Shown here in pieces: positions 2,861-16,065 of a stretch of 23,327 bases of DNA. The position numbers and the translations under genes were made by a program. Under the pieces are notes generated by a model that did not search any database, was not told the origin of the DNA, and was given only the letters and a program-made list of their open reading frames with translations. Location of the stretch: IMG/VR virus record IMGVR_UViG_3300029705_000088. One strand, given 5' to 3'. How positions within the stretch are numbered: the first letter of the stretch is position 1; each line of letters starts with the position of its first letter. The stretch comes from a virus.

Positions 2861-2889
2861 TTGACAAACGACCGGAAATGTGATATAAT
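2861..2889 (+). promoter_or_regulatory. Sigma70-type promoter with upstream TTTCGCAAAACC element
   Basis: ttgaca at 2861-2866 and tgatataat at 2881-2889. Confidence 0.8.
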
Positions 2890-2938
2890 ATATATACAGA
2901 GGAACCCAAGAGGTTCCAAGAGAAAGGAAGTAAAAACT

Positions 2939-3405
2939 ATGTTACCTAAGATGATTTGCTTTGACATGGACGGCACCCTCGCAGACCTTTACAACGTGCC
3001 CAACTGGCTTGAACAGCTTCGTGCGTTTGACCCTGCCCCGTATCGGGAAGCAGAATGTATGTGGGATGAAGAGGAGCTTGCTTGCATCCTGAATACGCTG
3101 ATTGATAACGGCGTTGAAATTCGCATTATCACTTGGCTGTCAAAGGAAAGCACTCCCGAGTATGATGAAGCGGTACGCGAAGCGAAGCGAGAATGGCTTG
3201 AAGCCCTCGGCATTCCTTACACTCACTTCCACGGTGTAAAGTATGGCGCGACTAAGGCTGACAGCATCCGCAGATACCTTGAAGAGGACGAAACCGCTTG
3301 CTCTTTGATGACAATGAAAAGGTTCGCAAGGGCTGGCACATGGGCGAAGCGTTTGACCCGACCGCGATTGATATTCTTGAATTACTGTATGCGCTCTTGG
3401 ATTGA
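2939..3405 (+). CDS. HAD-superfamily 5'(3')-deoxyribonucleotidase-like phosphatase (NT5C family); the reading frame is interrupted by a -1 shift near 3283-3294
   Basis: The product begins MLPKMICFDMDGTLADL, which is HAD motif I (DxDGT). GATKAD supplies the motif III lysine. The motif IV stretch LLFDDNEKVRKGW lies in the -1 frame and ends at TGA 3403-3405. The listed frame instead runs on to 3436 as non-homologous sequence. Confidence 0.7.
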
Positions 3406-3453
3406 GCGCATACAGGTAAATTCAAAAAAGTTTTAATACAGGAAAGAAATAGC

Positions 3454-3762: not shown

Positions 3763-4035
3763 ATGCCTACTGGTAGATTTAATGAAGTTGAAGAGAATGT
3801 TGTTCTGATGGAAGTCACCGCCGAAGAGCTTAAACTTATCATTGAAAGAAGAAAAAAAGAAATTACACGCGATAATTATATGGAAGAATTTAATGATTTA
3901 ATTTCTCGGGCAAGAAAAGATGGTATTTTCTTCTGCGTTCAACGTGGAAGAGTTGCTAACGGAACAAGACTGTTTGAAGAAGATGGTCCAGAATCATATA
4001 CAGATAGATTGAATAATATTCGTATCACCTATTAA
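3763..4035 (+). CDS. Hypothetical protein (90 aa)
   Basis: Conserved leader, the same as the 1528 gene, followed by ATG at 3763. Confidence 0.7.
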   Translation: MPTGRFNEVEENVVLMEVTAEELKLIIERRKKEITRDNYMEEFNDLISRARKDGIFFCVQRGRVANGTRLFEEDGPESYTDRLNNIRITY

Positions 4036-4371: not shown

Positions 4372-4575
4372 ATGACTAACACTAAAATTTATTTTGAGGT
4401 AGAAATTGAGGGCGTAGTAACCCAATTCAATAATTTCAATGATGCCCGTGATGAGTATAACGCGCTCATGGAATGCGGTTTCTACGAAGCCACCCTTCAC
4501 AGAGTAGAAGAAGTCAATGGCGACAAATACATAGTAGTATGGAATGACAGAAGTGCTTGCTTTTTCCCCCGCTAA
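4372..4575 (+). CDS. Hypothetical small protein (67 aa)
   Basis: ATG at 4372 with RBS aaagagagg. Confidence 0.65.
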   Translation: MTNTKIYFEVEIEGVVTQFNNFNDARDEYNALMECGFYEATLHRVEEVNGDKYIVVWNDRSACFFPR

Positions 4576-4604
4576 AAATCTTTAAAAAACTTTCGCAAAA
4601 CCCC

Positions 4605-4633
4605 TTGACAAATCGCTCAAAGTATGATATAAT
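4605..4633 (+). promoter_or_regulatory. Sigma70-type promoter (canonical class-A copy aaaaccccttgacaaatcgctcaaagtatgatataat)
   Basis: ttgaca at 4605-4610 and tataat at 4628-4633. Confidence 0.85.
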
Positions 4634-4675
4634 ATATATACCCCCGATACAGGGGGTAGAAAGAGAGATAGACCA

Positions 4676-5380
4676 ATGAACACAGAAAAGATTGACCGCC
4701 GCAGACATTACATTATCGTGCTTGACACGGAAACCGCAAACACCTTCCGCGATGAAAGAGGACAGCTTGACACAAGTAGTACACTTGTGTATGACCTTGG
4801 GTGGGCGGTAACTGATAAGCATGGAAACATCTACCGCAAAAAGAGTTTTGTAAATTCTGATATTTTCTTCCATGAAGCTGAACTGATGAAGTCGGCATAC
4901 TACGCAAATAAAATCCCGCAGTATCTCGCAGACATTGAAGCGGGTAGGCGCATTGTGGCTAATACCTATCAAATGCGCTCGGCTCTGCTGAATGATATCG
5001 CAGATTTCGCAGTTGATACAATTTGCGCGCATAACGCCCGTTTTGACTACAACAGCCTAAACAGCACAGAGCGCTGGACTACAAAAAGCAAGTACCGCTA
5101 TTTTCTCCCTTATGGAATTACAATTTGGGACAGTATGAAGATGGCGCAAAGTGTAATCGGAAAGATGCCCACCTACCGCGCATTTTGTGAAGAACATGGT
5201 TATCTGACAAAAACTGGCAGACTTTCCATGACAGCGGAAAATCTTTACAGATTCATTTCCCGCAATAATGATTTTGTTGAAAATCATACAGGGCTTGAAG
5301 ATGTGGAAATTGAAGCGCAGATAATGGCGTACTGTTTCAGACAACACAAGGCAATGCAGAAAGAGTTATGGGGGAATTAA
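4676..5380 (+). CDS. DnaQ-like DEDDh 3'-5' exonuclease (234 aa)
   Basis: Exo I is IIVLDTETAN, Exo II is AHNARFDYNSL, and Exo III is HTGLEDVEIEAQ. The leader hairpin ccccc gataca ggggg lies at 4641-4656. Confidence 0.75.
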   Translation: MNTEKIDRRRHYIIVLDTETANTFRDERGQLDTSSTLVYDLGWAVTDKHGNIYRKKSFVNSDIFFHEAELMKSAYYANKIPQYLADIEAGRRIVANTYQMRSALLNDIADFAVDTICAHNARFDYNSLNSTERWTTKSKYRYFLPYGITIWDSMKMAQSVIGKMPTYRAFCEEHGYLTKTGRLSMTAENLYRFISRNNDFVENHTGLEDVEIEAQIMAYCFRQHKAMQKELWGN

Positions 5381-5429
5381 TCCCCCATGACTACCGCAAA
5401 AAAAACTTTAAGAAATTTCGCAAAACCCC

Positions 5430-5458
5430 TTGACAAAACCGCAAAAGTATGATATAAT
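5430..5458 (+). promoter_or_regulatory. Sigma70-type promoter driving the tRNA-like gene
   Basis: ttgaca at 5430-5435 and tataat at 5453-5458. Confidence 0.8.
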
Positions 5459-5498
5459 ATATATACAGAAGAGAGGAACAAATCCTCCCCGATAATAT

Positions 5499-5605
5499 GG
5501 CAGTGAGATAGAAGCGGCTCTATTTCCATAAAGATGGCTTGAGATACAACAAATGGAAACGTTCGCCATTGGAAAACGTAGGTTCAACTCCTACCACTGC
5601 CTCCA
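5499..5605 (+). tRNA. tRNA-like gene, non-canonical length (107 nt). It has a 7-bp acceptor stem, a canonical T-arm and 3' CCA, but the middle part does not fold into a standard anticodon arm.
   Basis: ggcagtg at 5499-5505 pairs with cactgcc at 5595-5601. The T-arm gtagg-ttcaact-cctac is at 5578-5594, the discriminator t is at 5602, and CCA is at 5603-5605. A D-arm-like atag aagcggct ctat is present. I could not place a 7-nt anticodon loop with U33, nor find a CUA anticodon. Confidence 0.45.
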
Positions 5606-5636
5606 AAAAATTTTTCAAAAACTTTTGCAAAACCCC

Positions 5637-5665
5637 TTGACAAATCGCTCAAAGTATGATATAAT
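5637..5665 (+). promoter_or_regulatory. Sigma70-type promoter (class-A copy)
   Basis: ttgaca at 5637-5642 and tataat at 5660-5665. Confidence 0.85.
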
Positions 5666-5749
5666 ATATATACCGAAGCAAGAGGGCACGACCTCCAATC
5701 GGTAAAATAAAAATAATGGGTAGCGACCTACGCTGAAAGGATTGATACC

Positions 5750-6139
5750 ATGGCTACTACTAACTCTACTTCCAAGAAGCTCACTAAGCGCGACCACTTC
5801 AACACCCTGCTCCAGCTCCCCGAAGTTGCCGCAAATCCCGCACTCGTTGATTTCATCAACAACGAACTTGACCTGCTGGCTCGCAAGAACAACAGCGACA
5901 ACAAGAAGCTCACTGAAAAGGACATCGCAAATCAGGGGCTTAAGGCGGCGATTCTTGAATTCGCAACCGCGAGCGGCGAACAGCACACTGTTACCGACTT
6001 CATCAAGAACGTGCCTGCGTGCGCTGGACTTTCTCCGCAGAAGATTACCGCACTGGTTCGCCAGATGGTAGAAGATGGCAAGCTTGAAAAGGTAATCGTA
6101 AAGCGCGTATCTTACTTCCGCATTCCGGAGGGGGTTTAA
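5750..6139 (+). CDS. Hypothetical protein (129 aa), cassette A gene 1, with a possible C-terminal winged helix
   Basis: An 80-nt structured leader ends ...gctgaaaggattgataccATG. Codon usage is rich in C-ending codons. It is a paralogue of 9851..10249. Confidence 0.8.
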   Translation: MATTNSTSKKLTKRDHFNTLLQLPEVAANPALVDFINNELDLLARKNNSDNKKLTEKDIANQGLKAAILEFATASGEQHTVTDFIKNVPACAGLSPQKITALVRQMVEDGKLEKVIVKRVSYFRIPEGV

Positions 6140-6537: not shown

Positions 6538-6570
6538 AAATGCATATTACAAATGTAATATGCATTTTTG
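6538..6570. promoter_or_regulatory. Perfect AT-rich palindrome (aaaatgcatattaca aa tgtaatatgcatttt), a candidate operator or terminator
   Basis: The 15-bp arms are exact reverse complements. Confidence 0.5.
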
Positions 6571-6589
6571 TTTATTTTGACGAAAATTT

Positions 6590-6790
6590 CCAGTTCACAA
6601 ATTGTTTACAAAATATACTTGATTTGTTCAAACGCGCGTCGCCGATGGTGGCGCGCGTTTTTTTTGTCAATAGGTAATGTATACAAATTTTCAGAAAATT
6701 TTTGGGCGTTTTTAGTCAATTCATACAAATCCCGCAATTATGAACATTTTGTAAACAATAAAGAAAACCTATTGACTTTTTTATTATAAT
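6590..6790. repeat. About 190-bp intergenic repeat element, copy 1 (tttacaaaatatacttgatttgttcaaac, a GC hairpin with T-run terminator at 6631-6668, then ...caaatcccgcaattatgaacattttgtaaa...)
   Basis: Close similarity to 11150..11340. The GC hairpin aaacgcgcg...cgcgcgttttttttt is visible. Confidence 0.8.
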
Positions 6791-6800
6791 ATGATATAAT
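6772..6800 (+). promoter_or_regulatory. Sigma70-type promoter
   Basis: ttgact at 6772-6777 and tgatataat ending at 6800, 17 bp apart. Confidence 0.8.
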
Positions 6801-6845
6801 ATATATACAGAAAACAAAGAGCCAACAGGCAAAGGAGATAAAACA

Positions 6846-9472: not shown

Positions 9473-9501
9473 TTGACAAAAACGTGATTGTGTGGTATAA
9501 T
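9473..9501 (+). promoter_or_regulatory. Sigma70-type promoter with no ORF downstream (first of three tandem promoters)
   Basis: ttgaca at 9473-9478 and tgtggtataat at 9491-9501. Confidence 0.75.
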
Positions 9502-9579
9502 ATATATGTACCAAACAAAAGGATGCGCGGGGACGCCGAAAGCCACTCAAAAAAATTTGAAAAACTTTTCAAAAACCCC

Positions 9580-9608
9580 TTGACAAATCGCTCAAAGTAT
9601 GGTATAAT
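9580..9608 (+). promoter_or_regulatory. Sigma70-type promoter (class-A copy) driving an ORF-less structured transcript
   Basis: ttgaca at 9580-9585 and tataat at 9603-9608. Confidence 0.8.
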
Positions 9609-9614
9609 ATATAT

Positions 9615-9720
9615 GTCAGGGGCGAGGGTGAGTAAAACCTCGTAAAAAATCTCCTCATCAAGTGAAGTCCAAAATGCGATAAATTGACTTCAAATCTTGA
9701 TAGTATCGCAAAAAATTTTT
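9615..9720 (+). ncRNA. Candidate small non-coding RNA (about 105 nt): a 5' hairpin plus an H-type pseudoknot, ending in AAAAAATTTTT
   Basis: There is no ORF beyond a 10-codon one. The 5' hairpin is cgagg...cctcg (9623-9642). The pseudoknot has S1 at 9657-9669 paired with 9686-9701, and S2 tgcgata (9675-9681) paired with tatcgca (9704-9710), interleaved. Confidence 0.4.
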
Positions 9721-9741
9721 GAAAAACTTTTCAAAAACCCC

Positions 9742-9770
9742 TTGACAAATACCATAAAGTATGGTATAAT
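9742..9770 (+). promoter_or_regulatory. Sigma70-type promoter for cassette B
   Basis: ttgaca at 9742-9747 and tataat at 9765-9770. Confidence 0.8.
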
Positions 9771-11097: not shown

Positions 11098-11112
11098 AGG
11101 GATTTTCTTTTG
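11082..11112 (+). terminator. Intrinsic terminator (ccctctac tgat gtagaggg plus a T-rich tract) that contains the TAG stop
   Basis: Perfect 8-bp stem followed by attttcttttg. Confidence 0.65.
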
Positions 11113-11149
11113 TGCATAATGACGAAAATGCTGTGTTCATAATTTATTT

Positions 11150-11340
11150 ACAAAATATACTTGATTTGTTCAAACGCCCGCGACCGGAGGCCACGGGCGT
11201 TATTTTGTCAAGTGGTAATCTATACAAATTTTCAGAAATTTTTTTAACATTTTTGTACAAACCGCACAAATCCCGCAATTATGAACATTTTGTAAATAAA
11301 CAAGAATATCTATTGACATTTTTATAAAAATATGATATAA
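11150..11340. repeat. About 190-bp intergenic repeat element, copy 2 (homologue of 6590..6790)
   Basis: The same tttacaaaatatacttgatttgttcaaacgc, a GC hairpin (gcccgcgaccggaggccacgggcg), and ...caaatcccgcaattatgaacattttgtaaa. Confidence 0.8.
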
Positions 11341-11341
11341 T
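11313..11341 (+). promoter_or_regulatory. Sigma70-type promoter
   Basis: ttgaca at 11313-11318 and tgatataat ending at 11341. Confidence 0.8.
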
Positions 11342-11381
11342 ATATATACAGTAAAGAACCAACAGAAAGAGAGCAAATAAA

Positions 11382-14098: not shown

Positions 14099-14299
14099 TC
14101 ACAACACCCAAATAACTCCCTGCCGCAACAACTTCCTTCTCTCCTTGCCAATCTCCTTAAACCTCTTCCTCTCCTCCGCCTCAAACCCTCTCAACAACCA
14201 ACATCCAAGAGCAGAAGAAAAAGAAACTCTTTTCAACACATACCTAACAACTGCGCCTAGCACCAAGCCAACTACTACACCTGCCGCGACCCCTATCAT
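14099..14299 (-). CDS. Small membrane protein (66 aa), the last gene of the minus-strand operon
   Basis: Its start overlaps the upstream stop as ATGA. It has an N-terminal hydrophobic helix and a basic C-terminus. Confidence 0.6.
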   Translation of the reverse strand: MIGVAAGVVVGLVLGAVVRYVLKRVSFSSALGCWLLRGFEAEERKRFKEIGKERRKLLRQGVIWVL

Positions 14300-14607
14300 A
14301 ACTTAACCTCTTTCAATTCCGCAAAAAACTTATCAACTACCGTACTATATTGACTAAAATAATTATCTTTTTCCTTTTCTTTCTCTTTCTTTAACTTTTC
14401 ATATACCCAACATTTATTGCTCCCAAACTCTTTAACTTTCATATCTAATCCTACTCTACCAACAACTTTACCTTTAAAAACTAACCACCTATCATCATCT
14501 TCAATAATAAAATAATTCTCTTTATCCTTATTCTTCTCATTCAAAAAATAATTATCTCTATCAATTAAATAAACATTTTTATAACCATACGTACCACAAT
14601 GCCTCAT
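14296..14607 (-). CDS. Hypothetical protein (103 aa)
   Basis: RBS aaaggtg precedes the ATG. The stop is TGA. Confidence 0.65.
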   Translation of the reverse strand: MRHCGTYGYKNVYLIDRDNYFLNEKNKDKENYFIIEDDDRWLVFKGKVVGRVGLDMKVKEFGSNKCWVYEKLKKEKEKEKDNYFSQYSTVVDKFFAELKEVKL

Positions 14608-14648
14608 GAGTTTTCAATTCACCTTTCTGAAAGGGTCCCTTTTTCATT

Positions 14649-14930
14649 TCATTTTTCAAATACATTCTATAAAATAGAATCCGCATCATCAAAATTAAAA
14701 TTCATACCCTATAAAAAAGGATTATCCTCTCTTTCATTTTTATTTTCAAATATATTATAGCATATTTTTTTATCTTTATCAACTCTTCTTTTATTTTCTA
14801 AAACAAAGAAAATTTTTCCAGTTGTTTCATCTATATACAATTCTTTTACTTTTCTATGAGGCTGCTTCGCAACCTCTGATAAACCTGAATGATAATCATT
14901 TTCACTTAATTTTACAAAACCGACTTCCAT
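14649..14930 (-). CDS. Hypothetical protein (93 aa) containing two in-frame TAG codons, consistent with amber being read as sense
   Basis: Strong RBS aaaaaggagaattcaaaATG. The frame is open from 14930 to TGA at 14649-14651, apart from TAG at 14709-14711 and 14667-14669. The track truncates this ORF at the first TAG. Confidence 0.55.
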
Positions 14931-15146: not shown

Positions 15147-15830
15147 TTATTTCTTTTTACTATTATATACTAAAGATACATTTAATAATTTTTTCTTTGG
15201 TACTTTATTAATATAAATGGTTTCATAGTCAATTAATTTTGAATTATATAATAATTCTAAAGCGTGATTAATTATATCATAAGCTCTCTAATTATTTTTT
15301 ATATATATACCTATATGTTCTGCTATTTCATTCAAAGTAAAAATATAATTTTCCTACTATTTTAATCTTTTATTCTAATCTTCTTTATATTTATATTTCT
15401 AAACTAAATAAATATAAATTTTAATAATATGTTCCCGACAGTTATCCTATAAATATTCTAAAGTTGCTAAAGGAATATCTAAATAAATATTTTCTTTTAC
15501 TGGCAAATAATAATCTCCATTCTCTTTTTCCACTAAATACCCCTAATCTTTTAATGACTTCAAATGCGCTCTTAATGTTTTTGGACTTTTAATTTTTAAT
15601 TTTTCACACATATCTATTTGTTTTGGAATAATTGATTTCTTTACTACTGTTTCATATACTTCATAAGCCACACCCTTATCATCTTTTTTACAAACTTTTT
15701 CTGCTATTGAAATAGACTATAACAATCCATACAATTCACCATCTAATGTATTTGTATTTAAAAAAGTTTCATAATCTAATGTAGTATCCGCAGGAAACCT
15801 TTTTTCAATCTAATCTTTTGATTTTACCAC
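15147..15830 (-). CDS. Double winged-helix DNA-binding protein, RepA/replication-initiator-like (about 227 aa); the frame contains 8 in-frame TAG codons and no TAA or TGA
   Basis: RBS GGAGG, 7 nt, then GTG at 15830. The frame stays open to TAA at 15147-15149 apart from 8 TAGs. The translation carries two clean winged-helix motifs, MCEKLKIKSPKTLRAHLKSLKD*GYLVEKENGDYYLPV and FTLNEIAEHIGIYIKNN*RAYDIINHALELLYNSKLI. No ORF of at least 60 aa is called here in any frame. Confidence 0.6.
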
Positions 15831-15849
15831 AAGGAAACCTCCAATCTAA

Positions 15850-16065
15850 ATTTTACTAACTATGAAAAATTACCTTTCTAGTCGCACAATTATTTCAATT
15901 TCATTTATTTATATTTTACCTTTTTTGTCCAATATTTTTAGGTAATTTTACCTTTTTTAAAAGTAATATTCTAATAATATTTCTATTAAAAAATTAATAA
16001 AAATATTACTTACTAACTATGAAAAATTACCTAAAATTTTACTAACTATTAAATTTTACCCTTTT
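15850..16065. repeat. At least four further copies of the 24-bp motif family, between the divergent minus-strand operon and the plus-strand promoter
   Basis: ttttactaactatgaaaaattacctttc at 15851-15878, weaker copies at 15905-15960, then copies at 16007-16030 and 16035-16062. Confidence 0.75.

Follow-up and report, generated by a model that had tools for sequence, protein, structure and literature searches.

A gene of 107 nucleotides (nt) with the shape of a transfer RNA (tRNA) was characterized in a stretch of viral DNA of 23,327 nt (IMG/VR virus record IMGVR_UViG_3300029705_000088), the full length of which is referred to as the window. The gene occupies positions 5499–5605 of the plus strand, and it was best described as a phage-encoded, tRNA-derived, non-decoding RNA gene. 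Every feature of tRNA maturation was kept in its RNA, while the anticodon was lost. The anticodon stem-loop of 17 nt was replaced by an arm of 49 nt. The parts of the gene are listed below, all on the plus strand, with the basis of each in brackets.

5499–5505, plus strand: acceptor stem, 5′ strand, GGCAGTG (sequence, Rfam alignment, fold)
5508–5523, plus strand: D arm, ATAG (5508–5511), loop AAGCGGCT with G18 and G19, CTAT (5520–5523) (sequence, Rfam alignment)
5525–5573, plus strand: long arm in place of the anticodon arm (Rfam alignment, fold, excision search)
5525–5528 and 5570–5573, plus strand: outer stem of the long arm, TCCA and TGGA (fold)
5529–5533, plus strand: bulge of the long arm, 5 nt, TAAAG (fold)
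5534–5538 and 5565–5569, plus strand: inner stem of the long arm, ATGGC and GCCAT (fold)
5539–5564, plus strand: loop of the long arm, 26 nt (fold)
5574–5577, plus strand: variable loop, 4 nt, AAAC (Rfam alignment, fold)
5578–5594, plus strand: T arm, GTAGG (5578–5582), loop TTCAACT, CCTAC (5590–5594) (canonical G53–C61, T54, psi55, C56 and A58)
5595–5605, plus strand: acceptor stem, 3′ strand, CACTGCC (5595–5601), discriminator T5602 (U73) and encoded CCA (5603–5605) (sequence, Rfam alignment)

Architecture of the tRNA-like gene

The order of the whole gene was GGCAGTG-AG-ATAG-AAGCGGCT-CTAT-T-TCCA-TAAAG-ATGGC-(26 nt)-GCCAT-TGGA-AAAC-GTAGG-TTCAACT-CCTAC-CACTGCC-T-CCA. All seven acceptor pairs were of the Watson–Crick type and began with G1–C72, G2–C71 and C3–G70, ahead of the discriminator U73; the T stem was paired 5/5 and the D stem 4/4, the latter being extendable to 6. 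The D-arm stem, A14, G18 and G19 were all present. A preliminary description of this DNA, made from its letters, had proposed a perfect 7-base-pair (bp) acceptor stem, a plausible D arm, a textbook T arm, a discriminator base and an encoded CCA, and each of these was found. According to the Rfam alignment, two nucleotides of the core were noncanonical, position 8 being A (A5506) and position 21 being U (T5519) instead of the usual U8 and A21. The wording of that description, a canonical 3′ half and a noncanonical core under an early promoter of its own, was correct.

A structural scan required, within 60–200 nt, a T-loop motif together with a T stem and a 7-bp acceptor stem that were both perfectly paired. 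The window gave a single match, which was the tRNA-like gene, and 300 dinucleotide shuffles gave none. Because of this result, the tRNA-shaped architecture was taken as real and not as the product of chance. The preliminary description had suggested checks with tRNA predictors and covariance models, and their answers were divided. In a permissive Rfam search of 5380–5760, positions 1–71 of the RF00005 model were aligned with the gene at 29.4 bits, compared with a gathering score of 29 (E = 2.7e-4), and the alignment needed an insert of 41 nt in place of the closing pair and the 7-nt anticodon loop. Over the whole window, Rfam reported nothing at gathering thresholds and ARAGORN called 0 genes.

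The minimum-free-energy fold of −29.0 kcal/mol (z = −2.4 vs shuffles) was a class-I cloverleaf with a 4-nt variable loop. In this favoured fold, the RNA form of the long arm consisted of UCCA/UGGA, a 5-nt bulge, AUGGC/GCCAU and the 26-nt loop. The end-to-end match to the tRNA model, the cloverleaf fold and the 0/300 shuffles indicated that the gene was derived from a tRNA. A different stem of 7 bp with a 23-nt loop (5523–5529 with 5553–5559) had been described earlier. Its complementarity is genuine, but it did not stand as the preferred fold, the energy being −26.4 vs −29.0 kcal/mol (2.6 worse) and the pair probability below 0.03; it shares nucleotide 5523, the last base of the D stem, and its loop AAAGAUGGCUUGAGAUACAACAA gives no U33 after any 16-nt excision. 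Taken alone, the long arm had a z of −0.88 and was not stabler than shuffled sequence, 33 of 200 shuffles folding equally well. A partial internal duplication (TGGAAACGT at 5554–5562 vs TGGAAAACGT at 5570–5579) was considered as the origin of the insert and set aside; it was suggestive, and no simple route from it to a canonical tRNA could be reconstructed.

Recoding, decoding and acceptor identity

According to the homologue alignments, TAG was read as glutamine (Gln) in this phage. The open reading frame (ORF) at 15147–15869 on the minus strand encodes a winged-helix protein (HTH_11, E = 2.7e-4; HTH_11/LexA-like, DnaD-like) with 10 in-frame TAGs. It had 96 homologues, and when the 88 near-full-length ones were aligned, the best-conserved TAG columns were Gln in 81/88 and 87/88. 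Moreover, an 80%-identical homologue (P0121) had Q at the five TAG positions that could be matched by eye. Three consecutive genes beyond the window (L152:16829–19447, about window-equivalent 27480–30100) carried 10, 7 and 7 in-frame TAGs. The earlier claim that TAG is read as sense was borne out by these TAG-rich genes and by the alignment with Gln. Among the three genes is a family-2 glycosyltransferase, whole in the ENA calls and fragmented in the JGI standard-code calls, and the winged-helix ORF has a minus-strand neighbour at 14296–14930. The 35 nonoverlapping plus-strand ORFs of the window ended in TAA (31), TGA (2) or TAG (2), and the ORFs of the early region were mostly without in-frame TAG and almost never terminated by it.

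Since TAG is Gln, the phage needs a Gln-accepting tRNA(CUA), and an odd tRNA gene is a natural suspect in recoded phages, which need a suppressor tRNA. The phage sequence examined for tRNAs and antisense targets comprised 37 kb of the 91-kb genome. It contained one canonical tRNA, with the anticodon UAG (reading CUN), and no tRNA(CUA). The UAG tRNA is located about 7.9 kb past the window end (L152:20572–20648, same phage) and is a 77-nt class-I tRNA with an encoded CCA, G1·U72 and A73. It was labelled Leu by ARAGORN, yet it is without the long variable arm of bacterial tRNA-Leu, and it is not a TAG suppressor.

The tRNA-like gene had been put forward as a candidate for the missing suppressor, perhaps carrying an insertion or intron, and neither idea was upheld. 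No CTA, TTA or TCA was present within 5524–5577, and no GCA either; the sole CTA in the gene is a strand of the D stem. The earlier failure to find a CUA anticodon by eye agreed with this result. The earlier failure to place a 7-nt loop with U33 was confirmed by brute force, in a search through every contiguous deletion of 5524–5577 that leaves one nucleotide, a 17-nt arm and a 4–5-nt variable loop. No deletion yielded a stem of ≥4 bp in combination with U33 and with a purine at position 37, and the best candidate left the loop UUCGCCA (anticodon CGC, C37), which is noncanonical. Furthermore, Rfam at E ≤ 10 gave no intron or ribozyme family, and YrlA, tmRNA and tRNA-Sec were likewise without matches. 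The insert of 41 nt was far below the size of a group I intron, and the fold had a single bulge only, hence it was not a bulge-helix-bulge.

Because neither a 7-nt loop with U33 nor CUA was present, the gene was judged unable to decode and not to be the TAG-to-Gln suppressor. A decoding tRNA that emerges after unusual maturation (intron-containing or otherwise processed), possibly as a TAG suppressor, was very improbable. It would suit a phage in which TAG is Gln and no CUA tRNA was found, and the tRNA model does match the gene end to end. However, an intron-containing or suppressor tRNA was rejected as a candidate on the absence of CUA, UUA and UCA and on the exhaustive excision search; the size of the insert, the lack of a detected ribozyme or intron family and the acceptor identity described below also stood against it. 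In addition, a phage using the same promoters, L008, has an ordinary tRNA(CUA) suppressor of 73 nt (L008:3470–3542) in an array of 15 tRNA genes. The promoter sequence was common to 21 IMG/VR contigs, L008 included. At homologous positions in other promoter-sharing phages, tRNAs were observed with an 8-nt anticodon loop (L011:2178–2249 and L016:2563–2634) and with the anticodon AGG (L018:2751–2820).

For E. coli GlnRS, Gln-type acceptor identity comprises a weak 1–72 pair and G73. Neither feature was found in the tRNA-like gene, which has G1–C72 and U73. The bacterial cysteine (Cys) identity set consists of U73, G2–C71, C3–G70 and the GCA anticodon (PMC9976931, Table 1), and U73 by itself can make minihelices accept cysteine (PMC9976931). 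Except for the GCA anticodon, the gene matched this set, indicating that its acceptor end was of the Cys type and not of the Gln type. One genome from each of 185,579 species was then scanned for any T loop followed by CACTGCC-T, and the only canonical tRNAs with the same acceptor and U73 were tRNA-Cys(GCA) genes of the Bacillus cereus group and Paenibacillus. The gene resembled bacterial tRNA-Cys(GCA) in the identical acceptor GGCAGUG/CACUGCC with U73, the AAGYGG-type D loop, the class-I variable loop and the canonical T arm. It differed in having no GCA and no anticodon loop, a 49-nt arm where 17 nt are expected, and A8 and U21 instead of U8 and A21. The T-stem and D-stem sequences were unrelated to those of the Bacillus cereus group and Paenibacillus tRNA-Cys, so a recent capture from these genomes was not indicated. 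A parent was also sought in phage tRNA arrays (the tRNA-Cys genes of L008, L014, L017 and L151), and no close relative was found there.

The anticodon arm that defines a tRNA was lacking, and so were the anticodon and the acceptor of a Gln suppressor; therefore, the gene should be filed neither as a tRNA nor as an amber suppressor. The amber suppressor tRNAs of TAG-recoded gut phages (Borges et al., bioRxiv 10.1101/2021.08.26.457843) are comparable in that the window gene also belongs to a phage reading TAG as Gln and, on its sequence, would be transcribed from an early promoter in a region whose ORFs make little use of TAG. In contrast to them, it has no CUA, no canonical anticodon arm and a Cys-type acceptor. 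Excluding the suppressor role guards against misannotation, and the search for the suppressor moves to the remainder of the 91-kb genome.

A protein-coding role was barely credible. The frame in question would start at ATG 5497 (M-A-V-R-TAG...) and run, with TAG as Gln, for 46 codons to a TGA near 5634. Such a frame exists and TAG is sense in this phage, but there was no Shine-Dalgarno sequence 5–12 nt from the ATG, unlike in the neighbouring cassettes, gene callers left this place empty in seven contigs, and the tRNA architecture was far beyond chance. The small ORF was rejected because a ribosome-binding site was absent.

The promoter-bounded cassette and its distribution

The locus was a clean example of a tRNA-derived gene travelling as a promoter-bounded cassette. 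The features around the gene are as follows.

5430–5458, plus strand: upstream early promoter P1, −35 TTGACA (5430–5435), 17-nt spacer, TG-extended −10 TATAAT (5453–5458)
5438–5644, plus strand: lineage-specific insertion, 207 nt, approximate (alignment with L110, L112, L114 and L115)
5466–5498, plus strand: predicted 5′ leader of about 33 nt, hairpin GAGGA-ACAAA-TCCTC (5473–5490), U at −1 (start placed from the −10)
5606–5665, plus strand: A/T-rich upstream element and downstream promoter P2 (−35 at 5637, −10 ending at 5665)

P1 and P2 (the latter at 5637–5665) both agreed in 12/12 positions with the consensus TTGACA-17-TATAAT and had the TG of an extended −10, which supported the earlier claim that the gene lies alone between two copies of a strong promoter. 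Both are members of a plus-strand promoter family with at least nine near-identical copies. The P1 spacer AAACCGCAAAAGTATGA was unique to the tRNA-like cassette, and hairpins comparable to that of the leader were present after the promoters of other early cassettes. The segment 5606–5674 was 95.7% identical to 4574–4642. Sequence comparison points to P2 as the ancestral promoter of the gene at 5750–6139.

The insertion contains the promoter spacer and −10, the hairpin leader, the tRNA-like gene and the A/T-rich upstream element. Its edges lie in the TTGACAAA that is common to the two promoter copies 207 nt apart, and exact breakpoints cannot be defined inside this repeat. In relatives whose flanking genes are 88% (L110, L112 and L113) and 70% (L114 and L115) identical, one promoter was present and the element was absent between the same two genes. 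The upstream gene (4676–5380) is exonuclease-like (phrog_20187), and its homologues in gut and rumen metagenomes number more than 6,500. The contigs with an identical exonuclease-like protein represented the same phage; they were 99.9–100% identical, and the element was unchanged in all of them. Since this near identity extends genome-wide, population variation was uninformative on selection.

In the 93% relatives L147–L149, an HNH/NUMOD endonuclease was found at the site, and there was no element as far as the contigs extend, which is fully only in L149. This gene (L149:2042–2563 and the end of L147) is a free-standing homing endonuclease resembling I-HmuI, placed at the 3′ end of the exonuclease gene, the last codons of which are duplicated. 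Because the endonuclease and the tRNA-like cassette occupy the same intergenic site, the site downstream of the exonuclease gene is an insertion hot spot.

No similar element was found in 80 more distant loci by blastn, ARAGORN or the structural scan, and the scan of the 185,579 species gave no homologue. Four pattern scans of IMG/VR gave no homologue either; one scan returned 41 matches, all random and non-tRNA, and another returned only a tRNA-Met. Among GenBank phages, blastn gave generic T-arm matches only. The alignment of homologues for covariation that had been suggested earlier therefore found no material in the relatives, IMG/VR, the GenBank phages or the representative genomes. On this comparison, the element was confined to one near-clonal phage lineage and is a cassette that this lineage gained recently. 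The probable route of its acquisition is recombination at the repeated promoter, with an unsampled phage that uses the same promoters as the donor.

Similar arrangements were observed elsewhere. In another phage contig (L151), tRNA genes with an encoded CCA lie directly upstream of an A-rich upstream element and a promoter. At 9473–9770 of the window (plus strand), three consensus promoters occur within 300 nt, and the unique intervals of about 40 and about 110 nt between them have no convincing ORF; these intervals are further ORF-less promoter cassettes or small RNAs. The early region also contains a dispersed repeat of 250 nt (6566–6814 vs 11108–11355, 82% identical by megablast).

Origin, candidate functions and comparable RNAs

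The gene was judged likeliest to be a non-decoding relic of the tRNA-Cys type (a pseudo-tRNA) that is carried along by cassette shuffling without a selected function of its own, a reading with about an even chance of being right. It would have arrived as a 207-nt promoter-to-promoter cassette via recombination between copies of the early promoter. Transcription would begin at the consensus early promoter P1, a few nucleotides past 5458. The leader ends in U at −1, directly ahead of the predicted RNase P site, and RNase P, which this U and the UCCA at the 3′ end would suit, would cleave before G5499; the 3′ end would then be trimmed to the encoded CCA. The product would be L-shaped and about 107 nt long, and it would have no anticodon, while its elbow and its acceptor/T-arm limb would be normal. 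The relic was placed first because the element is a singleton, its odd arm has no signal of selection, two nucleotides of the core are off consensus and ORF-less fillers lie nearby, such promoter-to-promoter intervals occurring elsewhere in the same early region.

Several points weigh against a relic. All five helices were perfectly paired and the elbow was intact (G18, G19, T54, psi55, C56, A58 and G53–C61), and the oddity was limited to the anticodon arm, unlike the usual random decay. The cassette carries its own promoter spacer, −10 and hairpin leader; therefore, it would already have been a complete transcription unit in the donor. The lineage was met in many samples, which come from several projects, and the element is always present. 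Finally, neither a donor nor an ancestral canonical copy turned up, and the term "relic" is thus drawn from absence.

A functional mimic of the tRNA body is a serious rival reading, although a less likely one. It would be an abundant early RNA, matured like a tRNA and acting via the acceptor/T-arm limb and the CCA end. As a decoy or sponge, it could engage a host factor or a defence toxin that recognizes the tRNA body or its 3′ end; weak charging by CysRS through U73 and a natural tRNA scaffold that stabilizes and displays the 26-nt loop are further modes. The intact acceptor, D and T helices and elbow, the U at −1, the encoded CCA, the consensus early promoter with a standard hairpin leader and the movement of the cassette as a complete transcription unit would all be expected of such an RNA. 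The acceptance of cysteine by minihelices through U73 alone (PMC9976931) also speaks for it, as do the long tRNA-like elements of other phage-like contigs, among them a rumen prophage (L116, L125 and L138). However, the element is a singleton without homologues or covariation, the long arm is no stabler than shuffled sequence, and the 93%, 88% and 70% relatives do without the element. Moreover, no antisense target of the 26-nt loop was found in the 37 kb of phage sequence examined, where complementarity longer than 10 nt was absent from both strands. Its best duplexes reached −16.5 and −18.8 kcal/mol, no better than the −18.1 to −25.8 kcal/mol obtained with 40 shuffled loops. A 13-nt same-strand identity at 270–282 (E = 0.02, small search) was judged to be chance. 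No neighbouring protein was evident as a partner for a tRNA-like RNA.

In its strongest form, this proposal holds that a recoded rumen phage deliberately makes an anticodon-less RNA of the tRNA-Cys type as a mimic of the tRNA body, which is unlikely. Such an RNA may divert, as a decoy, a host defence enzyme that acts on tRNAs by attack or modification at the elbow or at the acceptor/CCA end; it may be a sponge that takes up RNase P, the CCA-adding enzyme, CysRS or EF-Tu; or it may be a natural scaffold presenting the 26-nt loop as an effector. Should the RNA prove stable and have a function, engineered tRNA scaffolds would have a natural counterpart in it, or it would represent a tRNA decoy of a new type.

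It was considered quite unlikely that the element is a processing or transcription module. The fold would then serve as an RNase P signal, or the cassette as a second strong promoter, for read-through into the gene at 5750–6139, and the tRNA-like RNA itself would be a by-product. The preliminary description had offered a tRNA-like element for processing or priming as its alternative to the suppressor, and on the sequence such a role is conceivable. No terminator was found between the CCA and the next promoter or gene, and the tandem promoters with short ORF-less intervals at 9473–9770 provide a parallel. Nevertheless, the gene at 5750–6139 has its own consensus promoter 30 nt past the element, the relatives use that promoter alone, and an RNase P signal needs less than a full cloverleaf.

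Among known systems, the stable species 1 and 2 RNAs of phage T4 (rnaC/rnaD) are comparable in general design. They are about 110–140 nt long, have tRNA-like termini and no known decoding role, and are probably matured by the enzymes that process tRNAs. They lie inside the tRNA gene cluster and are conserved among T4-like phages; in contrast, the window element is solitary, has its own promoter and occurs in one lineage. In engineered tRNA scaffolds, a cargo RNA replaces the anticodon arm, which in E. coli gives RNase P processing and stability. The window element has the same plan, with an intact acceptor, D and T framework and an exchanged anticodon arm, whereas the scaffolds are artificial and its own cargo is without detectable structure, target or conservation. 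Like tmRNA, it combines a tRNA-like domain of acceptor and T arm with a large non-tRNA insert; it differs in having C3–G70 and not G3·U70 (the alanine determinant), no pseudoknots, no tag reading frame and a length of 107 nt vs about 350 nt as is typical, and neither ARAGORN nor Rfam reported a tmRNA. A tRNA-Sec was excluded by the 7/5 limb (not 8/5, 13 bp), the 4-nt variable loop and the lack of TCA.

Other long tRNA-like elements were observed in further contigs. In a rumen/goat prophage region with SSB, a replication initiator, dUTPase and integrase, elements of 100–133 nt were located at L125:933–1046 and 2800–2932 and at L138:847–946, 1241–1354 and 3104–3236. ARAGORN missed them in L125 and L138 alike, and an Rfam search, limited to L125, reported nothing there. 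These elements have the T arm GATGGTTCGACTCCATC and an ACTAGTRA motif in common, their acceptor stems covary, and in one of them the acceptor and U73 agree with those of the window element; a separate family of long tRNA-like RNAs may be represented here. A Chloroflexi contig of a metagenome-assembled genome (L116, minus strand, about 3850–3965 in plus-strand coordinates of the locus) contains a tRNA-like element of 116 nt. Its acceptor stem and U73 are those of the window element, and an arm of 70 nt takes the place of the anticodon arm. It adjoins a cluster of tRNA genes, some of them irregular, and it has no sequence homology to the window element. Together with the window element, these RNAs could form an undescribed class of long-armed tRNA-like RNAs of phages.

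A protein of 191 aa is encoded 2 kb upstream of the tRNA-like gene (2861–3436, plus strand). It had a weak match to PF25109 (E = 2e-3; phrog_415), the HAD phosphatase domain of polynucleotide kinase-phosphatase, and a function in RNA-end repair is possible for it.

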